A stretch of 39,293 nucleotides of DNA, taken from the sequence record MN187550.1. The stretch is one strand, 5' to 3'. Source of the stretch: Escherichia phage phiv142-3. The position numbers were made by a program, and so were the translations under genes. The notes below the pieces were generated by a model. It made no database searches, was not told where the DNA came from, and worked only from the letters and a program-made list of their open reading frames with translations. Of the stretch, positions 4,758 to 26,576 are shown piece after piece. How positions within the stretch are numbered: the first letter of the stretch is position 1; each line of letters opens with the position of its first letter.

Positions 4758-4772
4758 TTACCTTTCAGGTAA
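4758..4772. promoter_or_regulatory. operator-like palindrome TTACCTTTCAGGTAA (site S1)
   Basis: Perfect 5-bp inverted arms TTACC/GGTAA around a 5-bp centre, in the divergent region between tailspike and the small antirepressor-like gene; flanked by palindromic TTTGCAAA. Confidence 0.6.
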
Positions 4773-7062: not shown

Positions 7063-7068
7063 AAACAA

Positions 7069-7097
7069 GGCCGCGAAAGCGGCCTGTGACATGTCAC
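7069..7097. terminator. hairpin GGCCGC-GAAA-GCGGCC plus adjacent palindrome GTGACATGTCAC at a convergent gene junction
   Basis: On the minus strand the hairpin is followed by TTGTTTTT, so it can terminate the long virion operon; the 12-bp palindrome (7086-7097) overlaps the stop codon of the membrane-protein gene. Confidence 0.5.
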
Positions 7098-7390
7098 GTC
7101 CCTTTTCTGAATGATAGCCATTCGAAAAATGATGACATTCCACCGCAGACAATAGCAAAGATGATCCCACCAAAGAAGAGAAGGCCAGCCTGCCACCACT
7201 CCCACCGCCATACATCCACAGCGCCAACCATACCAACAATCGCTCCAACAAATGGAATATAGCTCACGATGAAAGCAATGGGGGCTGCAATTATCCAGTG
7301 CAATCCCCACCATGATTCAAGCCCAGCCATAATTGCTGCCAACTGAAAAAGACCAACGACGATATAAACAATGAATCCTATAGCTTGCAT
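7094..7390 (-). CDS. small multi-TM membrane protein at the end of the virion operon
   Basis: 98 aa from the ATG at 7390 (AGGTGA RBS 4 nt upstream); the track ORF extends to a TTG at 7450; about 4 hydrophobic helices rich in Gly/Ala/Ile/Trp. Confidence 0.5.
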   Translation of the reverse strand: MQAIGFIVYIVVGLFQLAAIMAGLESWWGLHWIIAAPIAFIVSYIPFVGAIVGMVGAVDVWRWEWWQAGLLFFGGIIFAIVCGGMSSFFEWLSFRKGT

Positions 7391-7586
7391 GTAGTCACCT
7401 AATTTACCCAGTAAAAATAAGAGGCCTCCCCTCAATAAGGCTTGCAACAAGAACTACTCCCTGCACAACAAAGATGAACCAGCAAATAGCTTGAGTCTGA
7501 GGGTTAAGAAAATATTTGTAGCGGTCAATAAATAACAATACACCAGAAATTATCACACTCAAAATAATTAAAAACACAACACTTCC

Positions 7587-10061
7587 TTATTGCGGAGTGA
7601 CATCCTGTGGTCGCCACCAGTATGTCTGGTTAAACTCTTTCTTCGAACGTTGCTCCATTTTACGCAAATAACCTGGTGAAAAATACTCCTGCATCTGGTT
7701 AAAGATCATGTGATCGAGAGCCGCCTTTAAGTACCAGAGATTCGCACCTGGCATCAGACCTTTCCCCAGCTTAACCAGATCACCACCAGTCTGCTCATTC
7801 TTCCCTTCCACAGCATTTAACGGTATGCCCTGAGCAATCTTCACTACGTCATCAACCAGACCAGCTACCGGGCCAAGCATCGACGCCAGTGCGCCGCTTC
7901 CGTACCTAGTGTGATCTGACAATAAAAAGTCACCGTAAAGGCCAAGACCACCACCTTTCAGTAGAGCACCAAGCCAAAATTTAGCAGCATCTTCTCCTGT
8001 CATCTCGCGAGGATTACGACCAGACGCAAGGTCGTTAAGTTGCTGCGACAAAGCGCCAAGAATGGTCGTACTGGCAATAAACGTCGCAATATATGCCGCA
8101 CGCCCACCAGCAGATGGAATACCCATAGCGCGTGACCAGTGACGCATAACCACCGAGATAGGGAACGATTTAAACAGGAAAACACTTCTCGTTAATTCAC
8201 CTTTCCATGTTCCACGCTGAATACCAGAACCGGTTATCAGTTGCTCACGTGCTCCCGGTGTAATAACAGCCATATCAACTTCTTCAGTTACGGCACCGAG
8301 CAGTTTACGCATTGCCTCAAATTTCACGCGTTCAGGCTCACCAAGATGTTTAACTGCTGAATCAGGGATACGCATAATGCTTTCCGGTGTCAGCATCGTA
8401 TTATTGCCGTTCCCCCAGTCCTCCTGTTGAGCCAGCTTCCATACGCTCCAGTCTGTGTCAGTAATCCCTTTGCTTTTCAGGATACGAAAATCAGAATCAT
8501 CGAGGCTACGAAGGTCTGGTGTCCGTGACACTACTTCTCCCAGGCTTCCCATCATGGTTACGCCATAGGCGCGCTTGTGCGCATCTGACCATGCTGTAAG
8601 CCCACTGGCACGCATTACCGCCGTTGCAGCCCAACGAGACACAGACGGCCCCATATTATCCATCGCCCAGCGGTTAACGCTGCCAAGTAGAGATTCCATC
8701 GCTAGACCAGCGCGGCGCGCCCGCGCAAGTTCTGTACGGTTCGTTGGGTCCATAGCTTCAAGCTGGTTGCGGAATAACTGGTTCATTGGAAGGTTGGTCA
8801 CCTTCGCAGACAGATACATGGTTCCAAGATCAGAGAACGATGACAGCAACGCGGATCCGAGTCTGCTGGCAACCAGCCAGTTGCGGATATTGTCAGACCA
8901 TCGCGCGATGTGCGGATTCGCTACAGGCTGTGTCTTTCCGGAAATAAAGTTGTACAGATTCTCTGTGTTGTTCGCCAGCCGCTCGACTTTACCGGTTTTA
9001 CTCGGGTTAGCTGTTGCCGTTTCTGCCTTCACCTGATCAAGAAGAGAGCGGAAAACATGATCGGGGTTTGGGCCATATGTTTCCACCAGTGCAATATCTT
9101 TACTGATACCTTCCAGGTGACCGACCATGATTTCCCATAGAGAGCGATCGCCATAAAGTTGTTGATATTGCAGATAGGAATCTGCATCTTTGAAATGTAT
9201 CTGTCGTGATGCATTACCACGGTTAGCACGTGCGCCGGAAATTCGCATTCCGGTATCAGTAAGCTTATTCAGCCCACCAGTAGCGATCGTGTTATAAGCC
9301 TCTCCAAGAAATGAAGACAACTCGGCATCGTTCATCAGTTGTCCATCGGCTCGGATATAATATTTGCGATCCAGCTTACCTATAACATCGCTAACCCACT
9401 TATCCTTTGATACCGCCCCAACCTTTTCCATAGAATGATGTTGAGGGATCCCCCAGTTTTCGAGATAGCCAATGTCCCCACCAGCATCATTAAACCGGCG
9501 GCGCAGTAGCTCTGTCACTTCTCTCCACGCCTTAGCACCTTTTCTTGCTTTAGCATTGCCAGTATTTTGCCCTCGCATTTCATATACCAGGTCACGCACG
9601 CCAGCTTCATCTTCAAACAGGCCAAAAAAGCGAGGATCAACTGCTTCAAATGCCTCCTGCAATTGACTCAATGCATAATCACGAGTGGCTTTTGTTCTGG
9701 ATTCAACAGAGAGGAAATTCGATTTACCGTCTGCATTAAAAGCAATAGTACGGTTAAGAGCGCCAAGTTTCCCATCAGCCCCTTGATAGCTATTGATAAA
9801 TTTATCCAATCTCTGACGTGCGGCTATAGTGAGGGCCACACGACGTTTCTTTAATGCCGCTTCTCGCTGTAATTCTTCAGATGCCAATTGTGCTGCACGA
9901 TATAGCCGCTCTGATTCGGAAAGTTGTCTCCACGACATCGGGTCATCACGAGCAATGGAGCGCATATTTCGATAAATGCGGTCTTCAATGTTCTGTATTT
10001 CTCGCGCCGTTAACGTGCGCTGCGCCGCCTGCTGGACCGCTTGTATACATTCCTGTCTCAT
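7587..10061 (-). CDS. large internal virion / ejection protein (T7 gp16-like position, distal part)
   Basis: 824 aa; position and size within the podovirus-like structural operon; Gly-rich hydrophobic C-terminal region. Confidence 0.6.
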   Translation of the reverse strand: MRQECIQAVQQAAQRTLTAREIQNIEDRIYRNMRSIARDDPMSWRQLSESERLYRAAQLASEELQREAALKKRRVALTIAARQRLDKFINSYQGADGKLGALNRTIAFNADGKSNFLSVESRTKATRDYALSQLQEAFEAVDPRFFGLFEDEAGVRDLVYEMRGQNTGNAKARKGAKAWREVTELLRRRFNDAGGDIGYLENWGIPQHHSMEKVGAVSKDKWVSDVIGKLDRKYYIRADGQLMNDAELSSFLGEAYNTIATGGLNKLTDTGMRISGARANRGNASRQIHFKDADSYLQYQQLYGDRSLWEIMVGHLEGISKDIALVETYGPNPDHVFRSLLDQVKAETATANPSKTGKVERLANNTENLYNFISGKTQPVANPHIARWSDNIRNWLVASRLGSALLSSFSDLGTMYLSAKVTNLPMNQLFRNQLEAMDPTNRTELARARRAGLAMESLLGSVNRWAMDNMGPSVSRWAATAVMRASGLTAWSDAHKRAYGVTMMGSLGEVVSRTPDLRSLDDSDFRILKSKGITDTDWSVWKLAQQEDWGNGNNTMLTPESIMRIPDSAVKHLGEPERVKFEAMRKLLGAVTEEVDMAVITPGAREQLITGSGIQRGTWKGELTRSVFLFKSFPISVVMRHWSRAMGIPSAGGRAAYIATFIASTTILGALSQQLNDLASGRNPREMTGEDAAKFWLGALLKGGGLGLYGDFLLSDHTRYGSGALASMLGPVAGLVDDVVKIAQGIPLNAVEGKNEQTGGDLVKLGKGLMPGANLWYLKAALDHMIFNQMQEYFSPGYLRKMEQRSKKEFNQTYWWRPQDVTPQ

Positions 10062-10066
10062 TTAAT

Positions 10067-11869
10067 TTAACCTCTCAAGAAACACGCCACAGCGACATCA
10101 AACAGGCTGGAATCCTGTATTGCCTGCTCACTTTCCCTGTTCGCTTCATCCAGTACTTCACGCGCGCTGCGCGATTGTGGATTACCATCATCATCCAGCA
10201 CGGTGATTATCATGTCAGGTGATTCAAGCAGCGAGTCTTCAGCTATGCGCAGATCAATATCTCCTGCCTGATCCGCCATCATTTTTTGTTCTGCCTGTTG
10301 CAATATTTTATCAGGCTCAAAAGGAGCTACTTCGTCTGGCGTCCTGACCTCTGCTGTTTTATAGAATGAAACAGCCTGAGCATTAAGTTCACTTTCTGCC
10401 TGCTGTCTCCGAGCCAGTTCTGCTCGAGCTTCAAAAAACTGACCTCCAGGCTCGTGCGGTGCCAACGCGTTACGGGAAAATTCCAGGCGTTCTTGTGCCT
10501 GCCGGATTCGTTGATCAATATCGCGAAGTCTGGCCTGTTTATATGATCGAGCACGAGACAAAGCTTTACCGCTACCGGTTGGCTCTTCTGCAAGAATTTG
10601 TGCACGCTGTTCAGTGAGATTTTCAATAATTCGTTGGCTATTAGCGATTTCAGACTGGTAAACCTGTCTATCTCCACGCGGCAAAAGCTGCGCGGCCTGT
10701 TCTTCAAGCAACCGATTTTCTATAGCGCGCGCCGTTACTCCATCATCTACAGATGACAGAGCCTCATTAACTGCCTGAGACAGCAGACTCTTGCGCCCAG
10801 GAATTTCACTGAAAGATGCAGACTCAACAATGCTGGCAACGTCTACAGGTCTCCCCTGGCTAACATCAGACATAGCTTTTCGCAGAGCCTGAATGTGAGA
10901 ATTGCGCGAAAGCACGTTGATCGGCACGCCGGGCGCAATATCAATTTCAGCATGATGAGCGGCATTCGCCGCCAGTGCAGCATCGATATCAACTGGTGAA
11001 AAATTTGGTGCGTTTGTAGACTCGCCGCGAGAGTTAATAAATCTGCCGACACCACCAAACGCCACCCCAAGAACAGCATCAATAGCAATTGCCTGTCGAT
11101 CCAACACATCATACTGGTTAGCCATTTCGCTATAGCCACCATCACGAAGTGTTTTTGCAGTAAGCCCACGCTGTGCCATACCGAACGCAATATTTGTACC
11201 TGCTGCATAGGCAATATCTGGCGTTGCACGTACTGCTGTTGCTGCGGCGCGTCGCACTGAACTCTCACCCGTCCGCGCAAGCTGAGCCGCCACACCTTCC
11301 ACCAGCGCACCACCAGCACGTAACCCGAGGCTCATAGGGATCAGCGTTCCGGCACCAGCAGTAATGCCCTGCACTAATCCCGCTTCCTGCGCCGTCCTGA
11401 AATCAACACCCTGTGATGTAAGCCGTTCAAACTCAGAAAAACCCTGTAGAGAAGTTACCGCCGCAGCACCTCCGACCGGACCACCGAGCGTTGTACCGAC
11501 AACAGCCTGCCCGCCCATATCGAACAACCCATAAAGGACCTGCCCGGCGGTTCCGGTTGTCGCGGCATCAGGCGTCAGCCGCTTAACCTGCTGCTCTGCT
11601 AGTTTTCTCTGCTCAGCAATGTATGAAACTGAAGTGTCATTGATCGAGGTGTTTTCGTTAACAAACTGAGCAATCGGGGATACGATTTTATCCATCCCTG
11701 CCCATAGCAACTGATCTGGCTTTGCCACCAGCCCGGAGTACAAACCAGACAATGCCGCTCCTACAGCATTGTCGAAAAAACCAACATCGCTGTTAAAGCC
11801 AGCTGGATTTGATGCTGCTTCGTCAAGCTGCTGATTCTGGTTTACTGGATTAAGGCCAAAGTAACTCAT
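10067..11869 (-). CDS. internal virion / ejection protein (T7 gp16-like position, proximal part)
   Basis: 600 aa; separated from the next ORF by 5 nt and a frame change, so the pair may be a split gp16-like gene. Confidence 0.55.
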   Translation of the reverse strand: MSYFGLNPVNQNQQLDEAASNPAGFNSDVGFFDNAVGAALSGLYSGLVAKPDQLLWAGMDKIVSPIAQFVNENTSINDTSVSYIAEQRKLAEQQVKRLTPDAATTGTAGQVLYGLFDMGGQAVVGTTLGGPVGGAAAVTSLQGFSEFERLTSQGVDFRTAQEAGLVQGITAGAGTLIPMSLGLRAGGALVEGVAAQLARTGESSVRRAAATAVRATPDIAYAAGTNIAFGMAQRGLTAKTLRDGGYSEMANQYDVLDRQAIAIDAVLGVAFGGVGRFINSRGESTNAPNFSPVDIDAALAANAAHHAEIDIAPGVPINVLSRNSHIQALRKAMSDVSQGRPVDVASIVESASFSEIPGRKSLLSQAVNEALSSVDDGVTARAIENRLLEEQAAQLLPRGDRQVYQSEIANSQRIIENLTEQRAQILAEEPTGSGKALSRARSYKQARLRDIDQRIRQAQERLEFSRNALAPHEPGGQFFEARAELARRQQAESELNAQAVSFYKTAEVRTPDEVAPFEPDKILQQAEQKMMADQAGDIDLRIAEDSLLESPDMIITVLDDDGNPQSRSAREVLDEANRESEQAIQDSSLFDVAVACFLRG

Positions 11870-14379
11870 TGCGGAATATCTCCGGAGAATCTCTGACGCT
11901 TCTGTGTCAGATTAAGAACAACGGGAGAACCATCATCTTTCAGCAGATAACCAGTACCAAGTTTCACCAGGTACTGACTATCGCCGTAACTTTGCAAACC
12001 ATACTGACCAGGCGGTGTTTTTATCCCGGAGCCGACAACTTGTTCATTCCAAGCCTGATTAACCTGCTTATCGAATTGCTCTGCAGACATTCCCCACGGC
12101 AAAAGGACATTCCCCATTCCGTTATAGTCATGCACGCCACCTGTAGCTACGTTAACAGCCTGTTTCCAGACATCATTGTCAATTTCGCCTGATACCACGC
12201 CTTTTTTCGCCATCACACCAGCGTAATAATCCTTTGCGATCTCGTATGCCATTGATGCCCCCTGAGCGTCACCAGCAAATGCATCCTTCACCATGTCAGA
12301 AAACTCAAGGCGAAGATCAGCATCTTTAGGCATCGGAATACCTTTCGCATCATCAGTACTTTTACGAGCCGCCGCGCCAGCAAGAATTGTCTGCGCAGCG
12401 GTTTCAGGAGACACGGAAACATCCGGATTAAACCAGTTTTTTTCTGCCAAAATACCACCAGGCTTATCCATCAGTATCCCGGCAACGGCAGCAGATGGAG
12501 CGTTGGCACTGATCTGCTGTAGTGCTGACATATACACCTGCCCACCACCAGTGCTCTGCCTGATGGTATCGAGATATGCTGCCTGTTGGGAAACTGGAGC
12601 ATCACGAAAGAAAACACCGATCTGATTGGCCTCGTCTTTGGAAAAGAACGTCAGTGGAGTGCCATATGACTTAGCAAGGTCACTGACCTGAGCGGCACGC
12701 AAGGCAACGCTCTGTCCAAAGTTATCCTTATTGCTCATGTCGATAGGCTTTGCCTGTCCGGAGGCAAGAGAGAACTGCACAGGATCCGACTGCCGCTGCT
12801 TTATCACCTGATTTGCAGCCGAAACAACGTTGTCATAAAGAGCTGCGCGTGCCGCATACCCCTCCCCTGTCTCACCAGTATCCGGGCGTAATTGCTCAAC
12901 ATATGCTGTAATGCTGCTTGTCGGCATGTTGCGGAAAGAGCCTATATACTGTCCGGCGATTTGCGTATTTCTGAACTCGGTATATCGCAGGTTTCCTTCT
13001 CTTACTCCATAAGCTGCAATAAAATCAGCCTCACCAGGTGGGTTAGGAAATTCAACGCCACGCATATACGCAGCTGTCGCATCGCGAACCTGGCTGTCAA
13101 TCATCGTTTTATATTCAGCCTGCTGCTGCCGACGCAGTTGATCAGCCTGTCGCATAAAACTTGCCTGCGCCTCAGGAGATGCCGCATCGAATGCTGCATT
13201 ACCGGTATAGCGTTTGGTGTTGGTTGGAATTGTTGATAAACCAAGTGCTGCACTGACACCAGCAGTTAACTGCTGATCACTGTATGGCTGGCTACCGTTC
13301 TCATGATGGATAATGGCTGCACAAAGCGCCTTCAGGGTATCAGGATTAGATGCATCGAGAGGCTCATCAGCAGAAACGCCAAGTTGTTCGCACACTGCTT
13401 TGATATACGACATAGTGTCATTTTTATCAGTAGGCGGTGCCCAGCGATTAATTATCTCGCTGACGGTATCAATACCCTGCCTCTGATACGACATCAGGTT
13501 TCGCCCTAATGCACGAATCCCGTGTTCAGGTGTTTCGAATTTAGCAAATCGACCATCATCACCGGTCTGGCCTACCCACGGATTAGTTTTGCTGTATTCG
13601 AGATTTCCTGGGTTATTGTTGCGTATGCCACGGGCACGCTCGGAAGAGTCACTATCTGCTACAGCACGGCGAGCTCCAGCAGCAGTATCACTTAACTCGC
13701 CATTACTTTGGATGAATGCGGTCGCATTGTTTGCCGACCACTGGGACAATGCGGCATCAGCAACCTTCTCTTTAAACTCGACTTTCTTGGCCTGGATTTG
13801 CTCGTCGCTCCAGCCATGCGCAATGCCGTAATCCTCAATTTGCTGGAAAGTTTGCTTATTAGCCAATACGTATGCGGCGTTGTCGCCATACAATGCTGCG
13901 GCATTTTTACCATTGTTCAGCAGCGTAGCCTGAAACTGGCCTTCTTCGTAGGCGTTTATTTGCCCTATCTCGTGCCGCCAGGCCTGCGTAGTGAACTGAA
14001 TGCGCTGCTGCTGCGCCTGCTGCATGAAAGTATTACGAGCCTGTTCATCCGGCAGCGACATAGCCAGTTGTTCGACCTGAGCATCAAACTGCTGCGTATA
14101 CTCATGGCCTTTTCCAATAGCATTTTTCCCTTTCAGGTTAAGCAACCCTGTTTCAGGGTTATTCAGCAGATCGCTGCTTATCTGACTGAGGTTAAGAGAT
14201 GCCTCCTGAGCCAGAGCGATATTGGCACGCTGTTTTGCCTGACCAAAAACATCAATAGTCTCTGCCCCTGCCAGAACAAAAGCATCACCAATACCTGGCT
14301 GAGAAAACGTCTGCAAGCCTGCTGACTGAACTCCACGGCTCTCAACCTGACGTCCGGATACTGTTGGTACGACTGGCAT
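11866..14379 (-). CDS. internal virion protein (T7 gp15-like position) with a possible muralytic motif
   Basis: Start set at internal ATG (MPVVPTV...) which overlaps the upstream stop as TAATG and has a GGAGG RBS. Contains ...RNNNPGNLEY...FETPEHGIRALGRNL..., reminiscent of virion-associated peptidoglycan hydrolase domains (unverified). Confidence 0.6.
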   Translation of the reverse strand: MPVVPTVSGRQVESRGVQSAGLQTFSQPGIGDAFVLAGAETIDVFGQAKQRANIALAQEASLNLSQISSDLLNNPETGLLNLKGKNAIGKGHEYTQQFDAQVEQLAMSLPDEQARNTFMQQAQQQRIQFTTQAWRHEIGQINAYEEGQFQATLLNNGKNAAALYGDNAAYVLANKQTFQQIEDYGIAHGWSDEQIQAKKVEFKEKVADAALSQWSANNATAFIQSNGELSDTAAGARRAVADSDSSERARGIRNNNPGNLEYSKTNPWVGQTGDDGRFAKFETPEHGIRALGRNLMSYQRQGIDTVSEIINRWAPPTDKNDTMSYIKAVCEQLGVSADEPLDASNPDTLKALCAAIIHHENGSQPYSDQQLTAGVSAALGLSTIPTNTKRYTGNAAFDAASPEAQASFMRQADQLRRQQQAEYKTMIDSQVRDATAAYMRGVEFPNPPGEADFIAAYGVREGNLRYTEFRNTQIAGQYIGSFRNMPTSSITAYVEQLRPDTGETGEGYAARAALYDNVVSAANQVIKQRQSDPVQFSLASGQAKPIDMSNKDNFGQSVALRAAQVSDLAKSYGTPLTFFSKDEANQIGVFFRDAPVSQQAAYLDTIRQSTGGGQVYMSALQQISANAPSAAVAGILMDKPGGILAEKNWFNPDVSVSPETAAQTILAGAAARKSTDDAKGIPMPKDADLRLEFSDMVKDAFAGDAQGASMAYEIAKDYYAGVMAKKGVVSGEIDNDVWKQAVNVATGGVHDYNGMGNVLLPWGMSAEQFDKQVNQAWNEQVVGSGIKTPPGQYGLQSYGDSQYLVKLGTGYLLKDDGSPVVLNLTQKRQRFSGDIPQ

Positions 14380-14924
14380 TATAATCCTCCGGGTAATCTG
14401 GTTCCTGCTGCTGCCCCGATTGGCGCAGGAGTGCTTTGAGTAAACGGACTCCACGTCCCACCAAACATCTGGTACGCACCGTATGCCTTCAGAGGCGCAG
14501 TGAGCAATGTTGTTGCTGCTCCCACATTCCCCTGTTTACGGGCTGAACTGGCTTCTGCTTTATAGTTGGCAGCCTGAACCTGATAACCGTAAGCCTCGCG
14601 TTGCGCGTTATTCACCGTCGTCAGCGAATCAAGAGCGCCAAACTGGGCAGTGTCGCCAAATATATCCAGCGCGTTACCGGTAGATAAATCAGCGCCGGTA
14701 GCCCCCATTGTCGCCGCCTGTGTACCAAGCCGCTGTCTGGTCTCTCTGCGCCGTTGCTCAGCTTCAGCGTTACCTCTGTTTATTGCATCATTTGCCTGAG
14801 CAGTGGCTATATCTGCGTTCGCTTCTGCAACCTTCGAGGCATACTTTCCCTGTTGGTACTGGGTGTATGCCTGAATGCCACTCATGGCGAGCATTGCGCC
14901 ACCAGCAATAACCGGATCGCACAT
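14379..14924 (-). CDS. internal virion protein (T7 gp14-like position)
   Basis: 181 aa, Ala/Gly/Gln-rich; translationally coupled to neighbours. Confidence 0.55.
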   Translation of the reverse strand: MCDPVIAGGAMLAMSGIQAYTQYQQGKYASKVAEANADIATAQANDAINRGNAEAEQRRRETRQRLGTQAATMGATGADLSTGNALDIFGDTAQFGALDSLTTVNNAQREAYGYQVQAANYKAEASSARKQGNVGAATTLLTAPLKAYGAYQMFGGTWSPFTQSTPAPIGAAAGTRLPGGL

Positions 14925-15388
14925 TATTTTCTCTCCATGTGAAATCTGTGGAAATTAAGACCAAGAGCACCATAAGGCGCGGCTTCTTCAAGCCTGAATC
15001 CAAGCCAGTGCAGCCATGCTTTGGCAACATGGTTTCGCTCGTCGACGTAGTTTTCCAGGCGCGGATAAACTGCCAGCATCTGCTGCAATACAGGGCGGCA
15101 GTGGCGAAGAAATGTCTTCTGATATTTTTCAATACGGCTGGTTCCTACCAGCCAGGGCGTACCATTGCCACCGATCATTGACGCCGGAGATACGCCAAAC
15201 ATGGTTACCAGTTCTCCGTTCGCAAATCCTGACCAGGCCATAGTCGCAGTGCGAAGACCAACACGCAGCGCATCTTCGGTAGTCATCAGCGATACCGCAT
15301 ACAGTTCGTCAATATCAGCCTGACGAACATCCGGCAAAATCATCTGAAGATGCTCTTCGGTAGCGGGAACAATTCGAACATCGATCAT
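14924..15388 (-). CDS. internal virion protein (T7 gp13-like position)
   Basis: 154 aa; start overlaps the stop of the upstream tail gene. Confidence 0.5.
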   Translation of the reverse strand: MIDVRIVPATEEHLQMILPDVRQADIDELYAVSLMTTEDALRVGLRTATMAWSGFANGELVTMFGVSPASMIGGNGTPWLVGTSRIEKYQKTFLRHCRPVLQQMLAVYPRLENYVDERNHVAKAWLHWLGFRLEEAAPYGALGLNFHRFHMERK

Positions 15389-18464: not shown

Positions 18465-18793
18465 TACTCCCCCCCATTGCCGTACAGAGTTTCAGCCGCT
18501 GATTTTTCTACATCCCCGGAAACAGGAGCGATCGCCATATCCGTGATCTGCAGATCGGCGCTGCGATTAACACCATCGTCAGTTTCTCTGGCAGACAGGC
18601 CTCGAATAACAGCCTTTGCAGTTATCATCACTTCTGTTCCGACGCCCTGAGGTTGCGCCTTCAGCTTATTCAATGTGTCGTTATTAAGAGTGATGCACAG
18701 CCCCCACGGGTATTCATCGCGAGTTCTGGTTTCTCCGCTCTCATCCTGGTAGCTGTCAGTGCCGGTTTTGAGGTTTACGAGTTCCATATACAC
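18464..18793 (-). CDS. hypothetical virion protein
   Basis: 109-aa ORF in the structural operon. Confidence 0.45.
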   Translation of the reverse strand: MYMELVNLKTGTDSYQDESGETRTRDEYPWGLCITLNNDTLNKLKAQPQGVGTEVMITAKAVIRGLSARETDDGVNRSADLQITDMAIAPVSGDVEKSAAETLYGNGGE

Positions 18794-18837
18794 TCCTGCA
18801 ATAAAGGGGCCGAAGCCCCTTGTCTGATCCGCGAGGC

Positions 18838-19182
18838 TTACACGCCCAGTTCTTTACGCTTATCTGCGATCTTCTCGCGGAGCGTTTCGGCTTTGGCGTT
18901 ATGGTGTGGCTTCTCGTTAAAGAGCAATTCGTACTCTTCACGGAGCTTATCCAGTTCACCATCATCTGACACATCGTTGATGATTTTGGTGCTGGTTGCT
19001 GCCATAGACACCTTTCCTGCTACCTTTGCTTTTGCCTGTCTGGCTGCATCGTTAACAGGTTCCAGTGCGCTACCAGGCTCACCTTCGTATTCGATTTCTG
19101 CCCCCTCCGGCCACAGAGTGTTATGGATATGAGAGAGGCGCAGAACGCGGTATCTTGGTTTCTCACCTGACATCAATATCAC
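18838..19182 (-). CDS. hypothetical virion protein
   Basis: 114-aa ORF in the structural operon; charged C-terminus. Confidence 0.45.
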   Translation of the reverse strand: MILMSGEKPRYRVLRLSHIHNTLWPEGAEIEYEGEPGSALEPVNDAARQAKAKVAGKVSMAATSTKIINDVSDDGELDKLREEYELLFNEKPHHNAKAETLREKIADKRKELGV

Positions 19183-19183
19183 C

Positions 19184-19621
19184 TTAACCAGTTACTTTTG
19201 AGCGGATCGGATACGGCGTATTGGCATCAACATCAAGACTGATACCCGCAGTGAATTCGCCAGCCGTTAGTGGGCCAGTTGCGACGGAGTAGTTAACACG
19301 CAGATATCGCTGAACACCGGCAGGCACCTTTGCAGAAACAACTCGTTTACCTGCTGTCAGGGCGGTCTTTGCCAATGCGCCACTATCATAAATAGTGGTC
19401 CATGAGCTGTTATTCTCACTCGTCTGCAACTGGATGTTTACAGTTGCATCACCGCTTGCTGCGGCGGCTGTGTTAACCAGCGCCCAAAACTCAAGCGGGT
19501 AACCCACGCCGATATCACGACGTTTTCCGTCAATTGGACCGAGATCGATTACGTCAGTAGAAGCCGCGGTATTCGTAACCGCCTGAGCTTCGGAGAACAT
19601 CAACAGTTTGTCGGTGATCAT
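19184..19621 (-). CDS. putative capsid decoration / minor capsid protein
   Basis: 145 aa immediately downstream of the major capsid gene; Ala/Thr/Gly-rich. Confidence 0.45.
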   Translation of the reverse strand: MITDKLLMFSEAQAVTNTAASTDVIDLGPIDGKRRDIGVGYPLEFWALVNTAAAASGDATVNIQLQTSENNSSWTTIYDSGALAKTALTAGKRVVSAKVPAGVQRYLRVNYSVATGPLTAGEFTAGISLDVDANTPYPIRSKVTG

Positions 19622-19672
19622 CTTCTTTCTCCATTAGTGGGTCTGTTACGACCCACAGGTTAATAACAGGCG

Positions 19673-20665
19673 TTACACCACGCGGGCTTCTGTTTCCAGA
19701 AGCGCATCAGTTTCACGGATTGGTACACCACGGAATGAAGTCCACCACTCGCCTTCTGTCTCTTTTACGCTGATCGCCAGAGATGTTTTCTCCAGAGATT
19801 GCAGATCAAGAGCCTGGCCTACAGTGCGGTTCATGTAGAACACCGGGCGACCCATGCCACGGTTTGGAATGCGATGCAGTGCTTTAACCATCAACTTCGC
19901 AATATTTGCGGCAGAGGAAGGTTCTGAAAGATTGCTGACATCGATGTTTGCAATGCGAACAACATAACGCCAGTCACGCAGAGCAAGTCCGTTGTCCCAT
20001 TTGTAATGGGTACGGTAGCCTTCGTACTTGCCGCCATTAGCATCTTCCAGTGTCACCTGGCCTTTATCTTCCATCTGGATGCCAGCCTTCTGCCCTTTCG
20101 GGAAGATGCCATGCACGGTGTTTTCGCCCCACACCACTAACCAGATTGAGGTGTTATCTGTACCCGTGCCACCAGCATCAATGATGTTCTGAGCATTACC
20201 CGCAGACAGGCTGGAATAGCGGGAGGACAGTCCCATAAACTGCTGAGGGTTAACGCTGGAATCACCATAAAACAACGTCTGCGCCATCTGCTGATTCATC
20301 GCTTCAATAAATGCGCGGTCTTCAGACAGGCGGAATTCGGCGGTATTACCGTTCAGATCAGCCAGTGACTTATCGACTTCAGCATAGGTTTCCAGCATTC
20401 CAACGGAATCGGTGACCTGCACTGTGGTTGATTTGCTTGGCTGTACGCCATAGTTCAGCAAACGCCAGGTGGCTGAAGGTAAACCAGAACGAATGGTGGT
20501 TCGGTGTCCGGTAGGAAGGTTCCCTTCGACAAAAGGCATATCCTGAAGGATCGGGTTAGTTTGACCGAGAAGCTCGATAATCTTATCGACTTTCCCGTTT
20601 GGATCGACGCGCTTACCCCAGTCAGCCAGCGTTAGCGCAGTTAAGCCTTTAACAGCCATTGTCAT
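19673..20665 (-). CDS. major capsid protein
   Basis: 330 aa directly after the scaffold-like gene; size and position typical for podovirus coat proteins. Confidence 0.7.
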   Translation of the reverse strand: MTMAVKGLTALTLADWGKRVDPNGKVDKIIELLGQTNPILQDMPFVEGNLPTGHRTTIRSGLPSATWRLLNYGVQPSKSTTVQVTDSVGMLETYAEVDKSLADLNGNTAEFRLSEDRAFIEAMNQQMAQTLFYGDSSVNPQQFMGLSSRYSSLSAGNAQNIIDAGGTGTDNTSIWLVVWGENTVHGIFPKGQKAGIQMEDKGQVTLEDANGGKYEGYRTHYKWDNGLALRDWRYVVRIANIDVSNLSEPSSAANIAKLMVKALHRIPNRGMGRPVFYMNRTVGQALDLQSLEKTSLAISVKETEGEWWTSFRGVPIRETDALLETEARVV

Positions 20666-20673
20666 TTCCTCTC

Positions 20674-21375
20674 TTATTTGCCATAGAGCACTTCGGCCGC
20701 ACTACGCTGGCCTTCATTACCACCGGTGACCATGCCATCTTCAGACATCGCCTTTCCGATTTTCACGAACGTTTTGACCAGATCAGGGTGATTACCCAGC
20801 CCGGTGGTGTTCAGATATTCTTTGAGCTCAGGTGTCCCGAACTGGTCAAGCGCACGCTGTGCGGCGCTAAGGTTAGAAATCAACTTGTCGCCACCGATTT
20901 CTTTGTCAGCTTTTACATCCGCAGCCCACTGCTCGGTTGTTTTCTGCCAGGCTTCTGCCTGGCGCTGCTGAACACCTGCCAGAATCTTCGGATAAGCATC
21001 AACCAGCTTTTGCGCTTGCTCGTTGGTCAGGTTAAGTTCTCGCGCCACCGGCTCGAATTCCTTCAACGCTTCTGTATCCAGCTCTACGCCTTCGGCAGCC
21101 TGAAACTCGTACTTCTCAGGCGCACCCTCTGGTTTATTGCCGTCCTTTTTTTCATCCTGCTTATCGTTTTCAGGCTTTTTGTCATCAGCAGGTTTATCGC
21201 CATCAGCAACAGGTTGTGGCTTATCACCTTCCTGTTGTGATGGATCACCAACAGGAGCAGGGTTATCACCTGCAGGCGCTGACGGTTCTGACGCAGCCGG
21301 AGCTGCTCCACCATCGACTGGTTGCTCATTGCAAAGACGGCGATACAGCAAACGCTCAAATAAATTCATGATCAC
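20674..21375 (-). CDS. scaffolding protein
   Basis: 233 aa, low-complexity acidic Pro/Ala/Asp/Lys-rich N-terminus and helical charged C-terminus; between portal and capsid. Confidence 0.6.
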   Translation of the reverse strand: MIMNLFERLLYRRLCNEQPVDGGAAPAASEPSAPAGDNPAPVGDPSQQEGDKPQPVADGDKPADDKKPENDKQDEKKDGNKPEGAPEKYEFQAAEGVELDTEALKEFEPVARELNLTNEQAQKLVDAYPKILAGVQQRQAEAWQKTTEQWAADVKADKEIGGDKLISNLSAAQRALDQFGTPELKEYLNTTGLGNHPDLVKTFVKIGKAMSEDGMVTGGNEGQRSAAEVLYGK

Positions 21376-21668
21376 TCCTGTTCACTGGCCTCTTTGGCCA
21401 TCTTCAAATACTGTTCAGGGCAATGCGCTATAACGCGCTGAAACAGTTCCAGCGCCAGATTGCGTTGCCCCTCATTAAATGCCATTGCCATAGCGTCCAT
21501 CGGTGAGATAGCGGAAAACACACGGCCTTTCTCCAGCACCGACCAGACAACGCGACGCCCCTGTTCACTGCTCATGACAAAGCGAATGTCATCAATTTCA
21601 CGCTGCGCCATGTCACGTTGCTTACGGGCGTTTTCTTCTTTCAGTTGATCGTCTTCGTAATCTGTCAT
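21372..21668 (-). CDS. hypothetical protein between portal and scaffold
   Basis: 98 aa, charged; overlaps both neighbours by 4 bp. Confidence 0.5.
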   Translation of the reverse strand: MTDYEDDQLKEENARKQRDMAQREIDDIRFVMSSEQGRRVVWSVLEKGRVFSAISPMDAMAMAFNEGQRNLALELFQRVIAHCPEQYLKMAKEASEQE

Positions 21669-23344
21669 TGTGATTGCCCACCCTGACCACTAACTGCATT
21701 CGCCATAGCTGACAACACACTCGGATCTGAAGTTTTAGCTTCGCTTAGCGTCTTGGCACCCTGTGCCGCAGCCATCCCCATCGCCATCATTTGTTGCTGC
21801 TGTTGCTGCTGTGCCCGTTGCTGGCGAGCCTGCTCAACCTGTTCCTGCGGAACAATGACGGTTGGAGACACTCCAGACATATCAGCGAATGCATCGATCG
21901 CCTGATCAACGTTGAGTTTGTCGAGAGCTTCTGGTTTCGCTTGCGCAAGTTGACCAATGAAGTTGACCGTAGACGCCAGACTGGACAGGCCGATAGACTT
22001 CTGCGCCTGAGCCATGACGGAAATGTATTCGACCTTCAGGGGCATACCTTCCATCGCGTCAGGCGGTGGCGGCAGCATGTTTTTACGCACCATCATCGAG
22101 AAAGCGCGGTCAATGAGAGGATTAAGACATTCGTCGTTCAGACGCTCCAGAACCGGCCCCAACATCAGAAGTTTTTCTTCTTTCATTTCGATCACCGCTT
22201 CAACAGGCATCGAACGGGTATTGATGTTCTGCAACATCATGAACAGATCGACAAAGTAGGCGCTGTTAATGATTTGGCGAGTATCCTGAATGTCTGCTAC
22301 CAGATCTGCTGTACTTGGGTTAACCAGATAAGCAGGCCTGAAACCATCCTGACCAGTAATCTGATCGATATACGTGATGTCGCCAGGAAGAAGGGAGGCG
22401 CGCTGATTCTTGAGGGAAGTCGGAGCAACCATCGGCGGATTGGTGGCTTTATCAATCAACTGCGACTTGCGCTTCTGAAGAAGCTGCAATGCCTTAACAG
22501 GTCCAAGCGCCAGCATACCAGGGCATGATGATCCATAAACATCTTCGCCGTTAACTTCCCAGCGCGGAGCCATAATTGGAAACTCATCGAATCCGGACTC
22601 ACGCAACAACTTGTCGTTATCGCCACCAACCTCGTAATAAACCGATTTGAATGGCTTGTTCTTGCTATCCAGCTTCGATGTATCGCGGTCAATGTTCGGG
22701 TAAACCGAATGCATCACTTCAATCCACTTCTCGTAGGTACCGCTTTCCCACATGCTTTTTACGGATTCGCTGACGTTATTTAGCCCGAACTCCTGAACAA
22801 GCTGACGAACAGTCATAGAGAACTTGCGAAAACAGGTGTCCACACTGCCACGAGGTGAGTTAGCCAGATAGTAACTGCCTATCGGGAATGGCATTGTGCG
22901 AATGATGTCCTCGTCATCCTCCAGCACCGCCATTGCACCAGTGCTGTATGTGCCGAGGCTTCCGTATAACTGCGGAAGAGACTGGTAGAGATTCGACTTA
23001 TTGAACATATCGTTCATGCGGTTCTGCACCGCCTCAAGCCACAACTTAACAGGGCCATAATCCATCATTTCAGGATCTGGCGTAGCCAGGCGAAACCACG
23101 GACGCGCGGGGCTTGTGATGCCTGACATCATGCCGCTGGCGAGAGTGCGCGCCGCCATAGTCCCGGTCGAATCAATAATGCGTGTATTGCGTCGATCGTT
23201 ACGGTTGACCTCAGAAGTCAGAAAGCGGGAACCACGCGGGTTGATGTAATCACTCAACTCGCGCCAGTGCGGCTCGAACGACTGACGCTCGCTTTCAAGT
23301 TGTGCGAACTGTTTGTTCAATCGCTCTTTAGTTGTTTCCGCCAT
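21665..23344 (-). CDS. portal (head-to-tail connector) protein
   Basis: 559 aa; position after terminase; Gln/Ala-rich C-terminal tail. Confidence 0.75.
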   Translation of the reverse strand: MAETTKERLNKQFAQLESERQSFEPHWRELSDYINPRGSRFLTSEVNRNDRRNTRIIDSTGTMAARTLASGMMSGITSPARPWFRLATPDPEMMDYGPVKLWLEAVQNRMNDMFNKSNLYQSLPQLYGSLGTYSTGAMAVLEDDEDIIRTMPFPIGSYYLANSPRGSVDTCFRKFSMTVRQLVQEFGLNNVSESVKSMWESGTYEKWIEVMHSVYPNIDRDTSKLDSKNKPFKSVYYEVGGDNDKLLRESGFDEFPIMAPRWEVNGEDVYGSSCPGMLALGPVKALQLLQKRKSQLIDKATNPPMVAPTSLKNQRASLLPGDITYIDQITGQDGFRPAYLVNPSTADLVADIQDTRQIINSAYFVDLFMMLQNINTRSMPVEAVIEMKEEKLLMLGPVLERLNDECLNPLIDRAFSMMVRKNMLPPPPDAMEGMPLKVEYISVMAQAQKSIGLSSLASTVNFIGQLAQAKPEALDKLNVDQAIDAFADMSGVSPTVIVPQEQVEQARQQRAQQQQQQQMMAMGMAAAQGAKTLSEAKTSDPSVLSAMANAVSGQGGQSQ

Positions 23345-23358
23345 TTCAATGACTCCGG

Positions 23359-23565
23359 TTACTGACCAAGCAGCGTTTTACCGCTGGTATTAGCGGTTGA
23401 TGTGTCGCCCTGAGAACCGGTAAGCAGCGTAGAACTACGACCAGCAGCAGCGCGACGGCGACGAGTTTCTTCGTCGCGGGCATCAACAACGGCGGCATCC
23501 TGCTCCTGTGGTGCTGCCTGAACTTCTGGTGTTGCAGGCACTGACGGTGAGCTACCCATGCACAT
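23359..23565 (-). CDS. hypothetical small protein upstream of portal
   Basis: 68 aa; GGAG about 8 nt upstream of the ATG; low-complexity sequence, so coding status is uncertain. Confidence 0.3.
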   Translation of the reverse strand: MCMGSSPSVPATPEVQAAPQEQDAAVVDARDEETRRRRAAAGRSSTLLTGSQGDTSTANTSGKTLLGQ

Positions 23566-23655
23566 ATCAATGACTCCGTACGCAATTAAATTATTACCAA
23601 TTTAACCACATATGATTTATTTATCGTAGATAGTTGACATTTAACGCACGAATTA

Positions 23656-23670
23656 TTACCTTTCAGGTAA
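23656..23670. promoter_or_regulatory. operator-like palindrome TTACCTTTCAGGTAA (site S4, identical to S1)
   Basis: Perfect copy of the S1 15-mer in the non-coding region between portal and tRNA; a TTGACA hexamer lies 17 bp upstream. Confidence 0.55.
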
Positions 23671-23992
23671 GTAAAGGGTTCATTCCGGTTATTAACCTGA
23701 CTGGCTTATCGTTAAATTGAACAGGTGGAGTGAGCTTTTATTTTGAGCAGTACGGCGTATGGCACATGCGCCGATAGCGGTCTGGATACGTTTAAGGGGC
23801 ACCCTCCCTTGCTCGGGCAAACGAACCAGGTAGCCGGAATGTGCAAGTCGAGCGGTTTTATTCCGCGCACGGGGATTCACCATCCCGGCGATTCGGTGTG
23901 ACACCTCGGAAGAGACGAGGGTGCAACGATGAGAGCATTTATGGAGCCGCGACAAAGTGTGGCGCCTTAACAGGCTAAGTGCTCTCAGCGTT

Positions 23993-24069
23993 GTGGCATT
24001 AGCTCAGTTGGACAGAGCAACCGCCTTCTAAGCGGTTGGTCGCAGGTTCGAATCCTGCATGCCACGCCA
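23993..24069 (+). tRNA. tRNA-Arg (anticodon UCU)
   Basis: Hand-folded cloverleaf: 7-bp acceptor stem GTGGCAT/ATGCCAC, D-arm GCTC...GAGC, anticodon stem ACCGC/GCGGT with loop CTTCTAA, T-arm GCAGG-TTCGAATC-CTGC, discriminator G and encoded CCA. Confidence 0.85.
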
Positions 24070-24112
24070 GAATCACGCCTAAGGACCGTGATGCCAGAAG
24101 TTCCAGGTGCTT

Positions 24113-24257
24113 GGCGGTGATGGTTTCCCTTGAAGGACTATCACCGCCCTTTTTACAGCAGGACGCCATTGCGATGACTTCATGCTGTAAACCCGTACAG
24201 CCACGGAAGGCAGAACTCATTGCTTCCAGTTCGCCCGGTTCGCCGGGCATTTTTTTA
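24113..24257 (+). terminator. two terminator-like hairpins downstream of the tRNA
   Basis: GGCGGTGAT...ATCACCGCC followed by CTTTTT (24113-24164), and GCCCGG-TTCG-CCGGGC followed by ATTTTTTT (24233-24257). Confidence 0.55.
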
Positions 24258-24299
24258 AGGTGTGAATCATGAAATACGAATTCGATGGATTTTAATGTC

Positions 24300-24342
24300 G
24301 TGACACGTCACAAACAGCCAGCCGATGAGCTGGCTTTGTTTT
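24300..24342. terminator. palindrome GTGACACGTCAC followed by hairpin AGCCAGC-loop-GCTGGCT and T tract
   Basis: Second copy of the GTGACA(Y)GTCAC palindrome, 4 bp from a hairpin with TTGTTTT; lies just after the terL stop in the convergent junction with the tRNA island. Confidence 0.5.
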
Positions 24343-24385
24343 ATCCTCACCAGAGGATATCAGCAGCATTATCCCCTCCAGAGGA

Positions 24386-25861
24386 TTAAGCATAGGGATC
24401 GTAATCTGTAATGGCCTTGCCTTGCTGGTTCTGCTGCCCGGGAATTCGCAGGCGCTTTGACACCGGGAAAGCAAACGTCAGCAGTAGCGCATCGCCTTTA
24501 CCCGGCGAACGCCCAAGTCGCTCTTTGATATCTTCCTTCTGTTCGATAACGATTTTACCGTCCACGCGAACTTTGTACTCTGCCGTCGACAGGTCGTCCG
24601 CTGTTTCCTGGTCATCCAGCATCCCGCCCAGCCTCAGCCATGTCTTGCATGAGTTGAACATCTCCCCACGCTTGTTGAGCATCTGCGGGTCAGTAGACGC
24701 GCCACCGAACGGAACAAGTTGCCATGTACGACCCCAGCCGTCACCGATTGACTTCAGACCAGTTCCGTAACCGAAGTCGATGAACACTGCGTCAGCCTGG
24801 TACTGGTCTTCAAAGTCAGCGATACGCTTCGCCATTATCAGATCGTCAGTGGTCTTGTTGCCAGTCCACAGCACCTTACTGTGCAGCCCCTGCCGCAGGT
24901 ATATCACCGCGTCATCAACGCCTGAATATGCCGGGTCAACACCGATTATCACCGGAGCATGTGCCACCTGCGCAGCGGTTACCACCCGTTTCATTGCCTC
25001 ATCAGTAAGACCGGTAGGGATAAACTGCAATTCAGATGCATCAGGGAATATGCCGCGCACACGGATTTTAACGAAGTCGCTGTCTTCCCCGTAGTCATCA
25101 ACCCATTTCTGCAACTGCTGTTTGTTAGTACCTTCCACCGTCCGGCTGTCAATCTGCGCAGTTTTCCAGCGGTGTTTGTATTTGCGGAAACATTCGCGAA
25201 AACGCCCGGTATTACGTGTAGGGTTTCCGAACGCCACCCAGATAATCTCAGTGTCTTCGTCCGTAAGCGCACCCTCAGCAACTTCCCACACCAGATCCGC
25301 AATGTTCGACGCTTCATCGAATACCACGATGATGCGTTTGCGCTCGTTGTGTAGTCCGGCGAATGCCTCAGTGTTGTGCTCAGACCAGGGGATTGCGTCA
25401 GCTCGCCACCGCTTGTCGTGCCCAGGATCATTGCTGTACATCGCAGTAGCGGTACAGGTAAACCAGTCTTTCGTGATAGCAAGGTTCGACCACTTGATAA
25501 TTTCCGGCCAGGTCTTCGTTCGTAGCTGGTTGTCGGTGTTGGCGGTCACCACGACCTTACAATCCTCGCAAGTGGACATGCCCCAGTTGATCAGCATTGA
25601 GATGAATGCGGATTTACCAATACCGTGACCAGAAGCGCGTGCCAGCATAAGCGGCTGATAGCGCGTCTCTGGATTCTGCAGGTGATCACGTATCTCTCGG
25701 AACGCATCAGCCTGCCACTGACGTGGGCCGGTAGCATGTGCCAGTTCAGTCCCCTCTTCCCCCCACGGGAACGCATAGAGGGCATAGCCAAGCGGATCGT
25801 GAGTGAACCCTGCAATATCCTCGATCAACTGCTCTTCAGGAGATAACGCTGTATCTGTCAC
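24386..25861 (-). CDS. terminase large subunit
   Basis: 491 aa with a Walker A-like ...ASGHGIGKSAF... ATPase motif and nuclease-like acidic C-terminal region; downstream of the small-subunit gene with 4-bp overlap. Confidence 0.85.
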   Translation of the reverse strand: MTDTALSPEEQLIEDIAGFTHDPLGYALYAFPWGEEGTELAHATGPRQWQADAFREIRDHLQNPETRYQPLMLARASGHGIGKSAFISMLINWGMSTCEDCKVVVTANTDNQLRTKTWPEIIKWSNLAITKDWFTCTATAMYSNDPGHDKRWRADAIPWSEHNTEAFAGLHNERKRIIVVFDEASNIADLVWEVAEGALTDEDTEIIWVAFGNPTRNTGRFRECFRKYKHRWKTAQIDSRTVEGTNKQQLQKWVDDYGEDSDFVKIRVRGIFPDASELQFIPTGLTDEAMKRVVTAAQVAHAPVIIGVDPAYSGVDDAVIYLRQGLHSKVLWTGNKTTDDLIMAKRIADFEDQYQADAVFIDFGYGTGLKSIGDGWGRTWQLVPFGGASTDPQMLNKRGEMFNSCKTWLRLGGMLDDQETADDLSTAEYKVRVDGKIVIEQKEDIKERLGRSPGKGDALLLTFAFPVSKRLRIPGQQNQQGKAITDYDPYA

Positions 25862-26454
25862 TGATTACCATCCTGACGTTCTTTGAGTCGCTTCCTGGCT
25901 GCCGCTATGCGATCAGCAATTGTCACATTCACATTAACATCCAGGCGTTCTTTGAATGCATTGACGTCGACGTGCTTACCAATCAGTTCGAGGTTCTTCA
26001 CCTTGTCAGGCCATTTAATTTTTTTGAGAATTGTCTCTATCGAATCCTCGTTCATGTTCATGATGGTCGATGACAGATCAAAGCCACTAAGCGTAGTGCG
26101 CCAGATTTTCGGCCACTCGCGGATTGGCTTAAGGCTCCCATCGTCATTGAGGATATCAATCACGTCCATCTGGTCGATCTCCACCAGGCGCATGAGAACG
26201 TAATCGGCACTGACGCGCATTCGTTTGTTGCGCTCCTCCATCAACTCGGCAATCCGTTTTTGAATGCGTTCATCGCGCATCATGACACTGGCTTTAACTG
26301 CCGCTGTATTTGGGGAGAATCCTGCGTTAATCGCTGCCTGAGTCTGGTTTTCAGGCGTTTTGATGTATGACTGGCAATAAGCCTCCTGCATTGCGGTTAG
26401 TGGCTTAAATTGCGTTGATTTGCGTTTATAGGTTTTAGGTTCAGCAGGCATCAT
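25858..26454 (-). CDS. terminase small subunit
   Basis: ORF 25858..26532; start moved to an internal ATG (MMPAEPK...) preceded by GGTGG, because the N-terminal extension would cover operator site S11 and a terminator. Confidence 0.6.
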   Translation of the reverse strand: MMPAEPKTYKRKSTQFKPLTAMQEAYCQSYIKTPENQTQAAINAGFSPNTAAVKASVMMRDERIQKRIAELMEERNKRMRVSADYVLMRLVEIDQMDVIDILNDDGSLKPIREWPKIWRTTLSGFDLSSTIMNMNEDSIETILKKIKWPDKVKNLELIGKHVDVNAFKERLDVNVNVTIADRIAAARKRLKERQDGNQ

Positions 26455-26471
26455 AACCACCATGGTAATTG

Positions 26472-26486
26472 TTACCGTTGTGGTAA
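26472..26486. promoter_or_regulatory. operator-like palindrome TTACCGTTGTGGTAA (site S11) about 20 bp upstream of the terminase small-subunit start
   Basis: Perfect TTACC/GGTAA arms; between an intrinsic terminator and the terS RBS. Confidence 0.5.
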
Positions 26487-26496
26487 TAGCACCATG

Positions 26497-26523
26497 CAAA
26501 ATAAAGCCGCCATAGTTGGCGGC
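26497..26523 (-). terminator. intrinsic terminator in the late-operon leader (GCCGCC-loop-GGCGGC plus TTTATTTT on the minus strand)
   Basis: Hairpin and T tract read on the minus strand between the zinc-ribbon gene and terS. Confidence 0.55.
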
Positions 26524-26564
26524 AGTATTCAAAACCCATCAAATTCATCATGCATAATCTACTC

Positions 26565-26576
26565 GTGACATGTCAC
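26565..26576. promoter_or_regulatory. 12-bp palindrome GTGACATGTCAC (third copy) overlapping the stop of the zinc-ribbon gene
   Basis: Perfect palindrome about 40 bp upstream of the leader terminator. Confidence 0.45.

Follow-up and report, generated by a model that had tools for sequence, protein, structure and literature searches.

Three copies of a 12-bp motif at operon ends

The DNA analysed here is a stretch of 39,293 nucleotides from Escherichia phage phiv142-3 (sequence record MN187550.1; the whole stretch is hereafter called the window). It is a complete or nearly complete Uetakevirus genome, i.e., that of an epsilon15/phiV10-like temperate podophage of 39.3 kb, with a packaging and head region 97–98% identical to those of phages vB_EcoP_ZX5, PAS61 and phiV10 and with its late genes on the minus strand. 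The motif GTGACNNGTCAC has exactly three matches in the window, at positions 7086-7097 (site A), 24300-24311 (site B) and 26565-26576 (site C), the last of which overlaps the end of a gene encoding a protein of 112 amino acids with a predicted ribbon-helix-helix (RHH) fold and zinc ribbon. A preliminary description of this DNA had reported three perfect palindromes at these places. Three exact copies of the motif are indeed present; however, only those at 7086 and 26565 (GTGACATGTCAC) are perfect palindromes, the copy at 24300 (GTGACACGTCAC) having a non-self-complementary AC centre where most relatives have AT. The count exceeds chance, as had been suspected: in dinucleotide-preserving shuffles (n = 100) the mean number of matches was 0.04 and none of the 100 shuffles reached 3. 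Enrichment is restricted to the 2-bp spacer, as the window has no GTGAC/GTCAC pair at any other spacer from 0 to 8 bp; when 11 phage genomes carrying the gene were scanned over the same range, 25 of the 26 GTGAC...GTCAC pairs had a spacer of 2 bp.

The sites, to which no strand is assigned, lie at the end of the virion operon (A), between the 3' end of terL and a variable cargo region (B) and between the last early gene and terS (C), and these locations agree with the annotated genomes of phiV10, PAS61 and epsilon15. Two of them overlap stop codons, as had been noted before. The TGA within the half-site G-TGA-C terminates the minus-strand ORF 7094-7390 at site A (TGA 7094-7096) and, at site C, the minus-strand gene of the 112-aa protein (26573..26911; TGA 26573-26575), which starts with the GTG at 26911, or at 26920 when read as 115 aa. 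The ORF at site A encodes a very hydrophobic product of 98 aa; phiV10, epsilon15 and Tyrion carry unrelated small ORFs at its position, with homology ending exactly at the palindrome edge, and this boundary is a mosaic junction.

Each site is accompanied by a G+C-rich hairpin and a T tract, with gaps of 0 nt (A), 4 nt (B) and 41 nt (C), and each site precedes its hairpin (5' side) when read in the orientation in which the T tract follows. The virion-operon intrinsic terminator (7060..7085, minus strand; AGGCCGCTTTCGCGGCCT followed by TGTTTTT) has its hairpin at 7068-7085, directly abutting site A. The hairpin beside site B (24316-24335, within the plus-strand element 24316..24342; AGCCAGCCGATGAGCTGGCT followed by TTGTTTT) is a proper terminator for plus-strand transcripts, whereas late transcripts on the minus strand would encounter the hairpin, a weak GTTT tract and then site B. 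It is the last of three tandem plus-strand terminator-like hairpins located within 230 bp (24113-24148, 24233-24248 and 24316-24335). The opposite-strand moron (p03/gp50 type) found in the site B region of phiV10, epsilon15 and PAS61 is absent from the window. At site C, the late-operon leader terminator (26498..26523, minus strand; GCCGCCAACTATGGCGGC followed by TTTATTTTG; hairpin 26506-26523) is placed between the palindrome and the probable true start of terS. The phiV10-type annotation of terS from the TTG at 26532 is probably wrong, as alignment with epsilon15 and Tyrion points to the minus-strand ATG at 26454 (MMPAEPK...); with this start, the terminator 26506-26523 and a repressor-operator-like site next to it fall within an untranslated leader.

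The 12-mer is found at the same three places in epsilon15 (a Salmonella phage), Tyrion (Enterobacter) and PAS61, and phiV10 has two exact copies and a site C with one mismatch. Alignments at sites A and B showed that the flanks are unrelated between phages up to the very edge of a conserved module made of site and hairpin, an arrangement likewise present in epsilon15 and, at site A, in Tyrion; the two elements are thus kept as a unit amid diverged flanks. At site C, conservation covers the palindrome, the terminator, the operator-like sequence TTACC-N5-GGTAA and the start of terS, which are separated by a variable stretch. In a census of 50 close IMG/VR relatives with complete flanks, site C was intact in 47. 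The start of the phiV10 record inside the palindrome was rejected as evidence for a physical genome end or cos at site C, as it results from opening the record after the last stop codon.

Association of the motif with one gene family

The 112-aa protein belongs to PHROG 536 and is the equivalent of epsilon15 gp49, phiV10 p55, ZF40 gp22 and N15 gene 46. It is predicted to consist of a basic helix at the N terminus, an RHH and, at the C terminus, a CxxC...C...C ribbon. In an AlphaFold2 model (72 sequences, pLDDT 86), the basic helix spans residues 5-18 and is followed by an extended segment (19-29), helices at 30-42 and 52-74, the Cys cluster and a short C-terminal helix, so that the strand-helix-helix core of an RHH protein is present in the predicted structure. 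C79 and C82 do not vary among 88 diverse members, and conservation of C91 and C99 is at least 90%, which gives a Cys4 ribbon by sequence; R8 and R13 of the N-terminal helix are nearly invariant, and the presumed beta-strand is variable. An exhaustive HMM search returned 241 clusters at 50% identity, indicating a small but diverse family. Searches of Pfam, NCBIfam and PDB sequences identified no family for the 112-aa protein, and the 88 relatives had no Pfam match; PF10723 is recorded on some family members. Foldseek comparisons with PDB and BFVD were uninformative. The best fold match was to the MatP-matS complex, a weak one, and homology to MatP was rejected since the hhalign probability was not significant (0.1-0.9%) and a PDB profile search did not return MatP. 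Annotations of the family are limited to 'hypothetical protein' or a generic 'transcriptional regulator'.

PHROG 536 homologues are present in 153 phage records of very different kinds. Representative genomes carrying a homologue were taken and the motif copies counted; most genomes had three, and as a rule one copy overlapped or abutted the stop codon of the homologue. The myovirus ZF40 (63% identity) has three copies of GTGACATGTCAC, one of them 3 nt past the stop codon of the homologue. The telomere phages N15 and phiKO2 (33-36%) each have three copies of GTGAC(TG/CA)GTCAC, at 28550, 33237 and 39269 in N15 and at 31182, 36062 and 41939 in phiKO2, one of which overlaps the stop codon of gene 46 or gp45, respectively; the same pattern was found in 12 of 12 N15-like IMG/VR loci, with 2 or 4 copies in two or three loci that were truncated or of larger extent. 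In the antirepressor operon leader of the N15-type phages, one site precedes the -35 element of a promoter-like sequence by ~25 nt. A second is inside repA, where it encodes V-T-S-H and is invariant while adjacent codons change synonymously. A P2-like Yersinia phage has a single copy, overlapping the stop codon of its homologue, and Pantoea phage AH07 has two, one of them at the homologue's stop codon. Vibrio phage K303 (33%) carries three copies of GTGAC(A/G)CGTCAC, two of which are placed 19 nt before start codons, that of terS included. In Aeromonas phage 14AhydR10PP, three copies of GTGACCGGACAC each precede an ATG by 14-16 nt, one of them being ahead of the homologue itself. Finally, in a distant cluster (25-35% identity to the window protein), GTG(A/T)CCGG(A/T)CAC was found in 27 of 28 loci against ~0.08 expected per locus, usually 0-78 nt after the stop codon and with additional copies 1-5 kb off.

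The three copies of 14AhydR10PP (positions 251, 3032 and 29428) share a cassette of ~35 nt consisting of GTGACCGGACAC, G(A/G)(A/G)GGTTAAA and the ATG, which resembles the leader of N15 gene 47 (GTGACTGGTCACGGAGGGTTAAAAATG); this resemblance suggests that site, Shine-Dalgarno sequence and start codon may form a conserved unit in some lineages. A constant distance from the site to a -10-like hexamer was looked for by manual reading and proved inconsistent across lineages.

The genes next to the homologue differ in every lineage, and the homologue is the only gene common to these phages; a search for a conserved partner gene beside the sites found none. Conversely, PY54, an N15-type telomere phage, and P2 have neither the gene nor the site, and the PY54 RepA coding sequence has no site at the place equivalent to the N15 repA site. 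In the host, 100 kb of E. coli chromosome contained no 12-mer. The motif is therefore enriched, conserved and tied to one gene family. Comparative genomics thus singled out the 115-aa zinc-ribbon protein among the candidates listed in the preliminary description, and the protein-binding site proposed there fits well with a motif and a gene that travel together through otherwise unrelated phages.

The reverse association was addressed by a 14-mer scan of IMG/VR; the pieces recovered were short and, among the matches listed, 23 of 80 carry the gene, a proportion that is not quantitatively interpretable. A scan of IMG/VR for distant relatives with one query (P0205) gave no match, and a RepA-anchored scan returned close N15 relatives alone, so that PY54 is the only within-clade case of absence. 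In complete E. coli genomes, gene and site are present in 695 of 5,426 (13%), the gene being labelled 'hypothetical protein'. The 'gp46' of NAR688 detected in lysogens was considered as a family member and discarded, as it is the CB repressor.

Candidate operators and competing explanations

The comparison of site variants bears on how the motif might be recognised. The A/T at positions 4 and 9 varies independently in the two halves, and the frequent variant GTGTCCGGTCAC breaks the would-be 4-9 base pair; the half-sites are conserved in sequence and do not covary. The outer GTG/CAC hardly varies, and the central dinucleotide depends on the lineage. As a 2-nt centre is unable to close a hairpin, these features argue for recognition of duplex DNA rather than of an RNA stem, and point to a symmetric dimer that tolerates degeneracy at position 4. 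Because the motif tracks one gene family, with dispersed copies in non-homologous contexts, its simplest reading is the binding site of that protein. We consider it probable, with good confidence, that the 112-aa protein binds the palindromes as its operators. A dimer would sit on GTG(A/T)C-N2-G(A/T)CAC with its RHH beta-ribbon over the lineage-variable centre, while R8 and R13 of the N-terminal helices would read the outer GTG/CAC. By inference, binding would thus resemble that of MatP, the ribbon lying centrally and the basic helices contacting the outer half-sites.

What the bound protein would do is suggested by the position of the sites in Uetakevirus, where each is joined to an intrinsic terminator and marks the 3' end of one of three rightward units (early-right, terS-terL and the virion operon). 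The protein could act there as a DNA-bound modulator of RNA polymerase passage. At site C, bound between its own stop codon and the late leader terminator, it may control whether transcription of the early operon continues into the terminase operon, by blocking or by promoting read-through. At the convergent junctions A and B, where the site is on the hairpin side with no T tract, it may serve as a roadblock or insulator and would face polymerases that approach in the orientation for which the hairpin by itself is no terminator. Taken as a whole, the explanation that the palindromes are cognate operators of the 112-aa protein through which polymerase passage is modulated is evenly poised between right and wrong. 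Its parts differ in strength: a function in blocking or insulating, with possible gating at C, is tentative, and the direction and kind of the transcriptional effect can be proposed with equally low confidence. A more specific version, in which the protein represents a widespread and undescribed class of regulator, a mini-MatP-like protein with RHH and zinc ribbon that uses a matS-like 12-mer to mark operon ends and switches the adjacent terminator, is unlikely. In this version the 12-mer, often within the stop codon of the last gene, would keep the protein tethered to the DNA beside the terminator, making termination conditional at C (early-to-late read-through) and effectively bidirectional at A and B; such tethering to a DNA site would set it apart from N, Q, put RNA and RfaH. 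The pair of gene and candidate operator would be of a known kind, an RHH regulator with its operator, and a new mode of terminator control has a modest chance.

Several observations weigh against the explanation by cognate operators. Site B is present in 31 of the 50 close relatives and absent from the other 19, and it is therefore dispensable; it is also missing from an E. coli prophage that has a tRNA-Arg at that place. Beyond the genus, a terminator-like hairpin was found within 50 nt of just 1 of 18 sites, compared to ~20% of random positions. The pairing of palindrome and terminator is thus a lineage-specific use and not a defining property of the site, and was rejected as a general feature: the link with termination or antitermination suggested in the preliminary description is supported in part, by the conserved unit of site and hairpin in Uetakevirus, and not by the sites of other lineages. 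Although ~13 of 20 sites are intergenic in annotated genomes that are ~90% coding, some of those of ZF40, N15 and AH07 are inside genes, and in some family loci the nearest site is 1-5 kb away from the gene. The copy at the stop codon is physically linked to the gene, and its co-occurrence is in part inheritance; the dispersed copies, which stand in non-homologous contexts in each lineage, provide the independent evidence for the tie between gene and motif. In addition, RHH proteins are usually repressors, so that a block at C would oppose late expression unless the late units have promoters of their own, and no good sigma-70 promoter was found in the site C region. Lastly, N15, ZF40, AH07 and P2-like phages encode Q-like or Ogr-like late regulators in addition to the family member. 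In the other lineages the sites are found 12-19 nt ahead of start codons just downstream of -10-like hexamers, or within genes (repA, cII-like, Q-like), a pattern typical of the operator of a repressor or roadblock.

The strongest competing mechanism for this genus is that the 112-aa protein is the late antiterminator or activator of Uetakeviruses and that site C is its loading site, comparable to a Q-binding element: a weak promoter would overlap the palindrome, and the terminator 41 nt downstream would be passed once the protein engages RNA polymerase, sites A and B being secondary. As in the lambdoid arrangement of Q, Q-binding element and pR'-tR', a small protein with a Cys cluster is encoded by the last early gene, immediately upstream of terS, and throughout the genus gene, site, terminator and late genes follow one another in this order. 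Lambda Q, too, is a zinc-binding protein. The records of these phages annotate no other late regulator, and GTGACA can be read as a -35 element (GTGACA-18-CATGAT in the window, GTGACA-17-TAAATT in epsilon15). However, this is the sole promoter-like match at C and a weak one (9/12), its register differs, with a 6-bp shift of the palindrome relative to the -10-like element between the E. coli and Salmonella phages, and the database searches gave no similarity to any Q family. A Q-like switch would moreover leave the sites at operon ends and within genes unexplained, and the coexistence with annotated Q-like proteins and, in P2-like phages, with an Ogr-sized regulator counts against it too. We hold it to be rather unlikely.

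The sites could also be structural or recombinational elements that need no dedicated protein, such as RNA-level composite terminators or linkers at mosaic module boundaries. The flanks do switch exactly at the edges of the site and hairpin module at A and B, the cargo beside B is variable, and an inverted pair of copies in Aeromonas-type P2-like prophages makes up the stem of a hairpin that resembles a terminator and has a T7 run after it; but a palindrome of 12 nt with a centre of 2 nt will not fold into a stable hairpin by itself, the half-sites do not covary, and neither the tracking of one gene family nor the absence of the motif from PY54 and P2 would be accounted for, which makes this reading very unlikely. 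Binding by a host factor, either MatP on a shortened matS or another nucleoid protein of Enterobacterales or Vibrionales that would tie the phage genome to the organisation of the host chromosome, is highly improbable. The hosts of the motif-carrying phages all come from clades generally credited with MatP. The motif and matS have the same half-site, GTGAC(A), an RHH is part of MatP as well, and both kinds of site occur as dispersed copies. On the other hand, the matS pattern is a 13-bp GTGAC[AG]N[TC]GTCAC (PMC3603311, after Mercier 2008), whereas the motif has 12 bp with a 2-bp centre in all three copies of the window, and the window contains no GTGAC-N3-GTCAC, which agrees with the doubt expressed earlier about MatP binding. 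Canonical matS is reported to be absent from 500 prophages and appears to be counter-selected (PMC3603311), a pattern from which a site shorter by 1 bp would escape. A sample of the Ter region of the host chromosome (E. coli EC5654, 2.50-2.55 Mb) contained two canonical 13-bp matS (GTGACGTTGTCAC), at 12022 and 27651 of the sample, and no 12-mer. The motif follows the phage gene and not the host, PY54 (a Yersinia phage) and P2 (E. coli) having no copy, and its copies stand at gene ends and operon junctions. Furthermore, MatP is a host protein, while the 112-aa protein is encoded by the phage, appears to have a Cys4 ribbon in place of a four-helix bundle or coiled coil and shows no significant sequence or profile similarity to it. 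Equally remote is a packaging signal, in which the palindrome would be a pac-type element recognised by the small terminase subunit: site C is just upstream of terS, one K303 copy precedes the terS start codon and P2-like prophage copies are ~200 bp from cos, but each genome has three dispersed copies, C alone of those in the window is near terS, those of N15, phiKO2 and ZF40 are nowhere near terS or cos, and the motif correlates with the PHROG 536 gene across unrelated terminases.

Relation to known systems

If the palindromes are operators of the 112-aa protein, the closest analogues of the system would be MatP/matS, the lambdoid Q module and the classical RHH repressors, such as P22 Arc and Mnt, CopG/RepB of rolling-circle-replicating (RCR) plasmids, RHH antitoxins and NikR. 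The RHH repressors share the predicted fold and a short symmetric operator, and the site just upstream of the homologue's own gene in the Aeromonas phage recalls autoregulation. In contrast to them, the 112-aa protein adds a conserved N-terminal basic helix and a C-terminal predicted zinc ribbon and has no toxin partner, and its sites are two or three dispersed copies, usually located at a gene 3' end, in the stop codon, and not in a promoter. The SopB centromere sites of N15 and phiKO2 are similar in that several short palindromes are scattered through regulatory regions of a temperate phage. Both sets coexist in N15, with four GCGACC-N2-GGTCGC and three GTGAC-N2-GTCAC, and phiKO2 annotates the GCGACC set as putative partition sites; however, SopB belongs to the ParB family and has a ParA partner, whereas the 112-aa family is also present in integrating phages without partition genes. 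SlmA, a TetR-type host protein, binds sites with the consensus GTGAGTACTCAC. This consensus is likewise a 12-bp palindrome with a 5-2-5 layout and outer GTGA...TCAC, but the phage motif has C/G and not G/C at positions 5 and 8, and it tracks a phage gene.

The records of epsilon15, phiV10, Tyrion, N15 and phiKO2 do not annotate the motif, and a literature search using GTGACATGTCAC, GTGACNNGTCAC, N15 gp46 and the combination of RHH and zinc ribbon in prophages returned nothing relevant, motif and family being undescribed there. Gene and site are found as well in temperate phages of Salmonella, Klebsiella, Enterobacter, Yersinia, Pectobacterium, Pantoea, Vibrio and Aeromonas. The late-gene switch of epsilon15-like phages is unannotated in the records examined and no relevant paper on it was found; the gene and site pair sits at that junction. 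A 12-bp operator, a 112-aa protein and three natural modules of site and terminator would constitute a compact and directly testable system. As the half-site is nearly identical to that of matS, one may also ask whether RHH proteins of phage and host have a mode of DNA reading in common, with cross-talk avoided by a spacer difference of 1 bp.

The sequence TTACC-N5-GGTAA conserved at site C belongs to the type that the epsilon15 record annotates as 'repressor' sites (ATTACC-N4/5-GGTAAT). These annotated operators were considered as a possible identity for the palindrome and set aside, as they are a different motif. The window has ten copies of TTACC-N5-GGTAA, at 4758, 5138, 6153, 23656, 26472, 29902, 29964, 32294, 33006 and 33068, including those before terS (26472), ahead of the portal operon (23656), near the gene of a CI-type repressor and in the 4.7-6.2 kb region. 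The copies ahead of late units suggest that the CI-type repressor may also act on these units directly.

The inverted pairs of the Aeromonas-type P2-like prophages consist of GTGTCCGGTCAC-N12-GTGACCGGACAC followed by 6-7 T, at 10367-10402 in one prophage locus (L101) and at 10349-10384 in another (L114). In both, the terminator-like hairpin formed by the pair lies at the end of the early operon, and in L114 it is ~200 bp from a P2-type cos sequence (GGCGAGGCGGGG).

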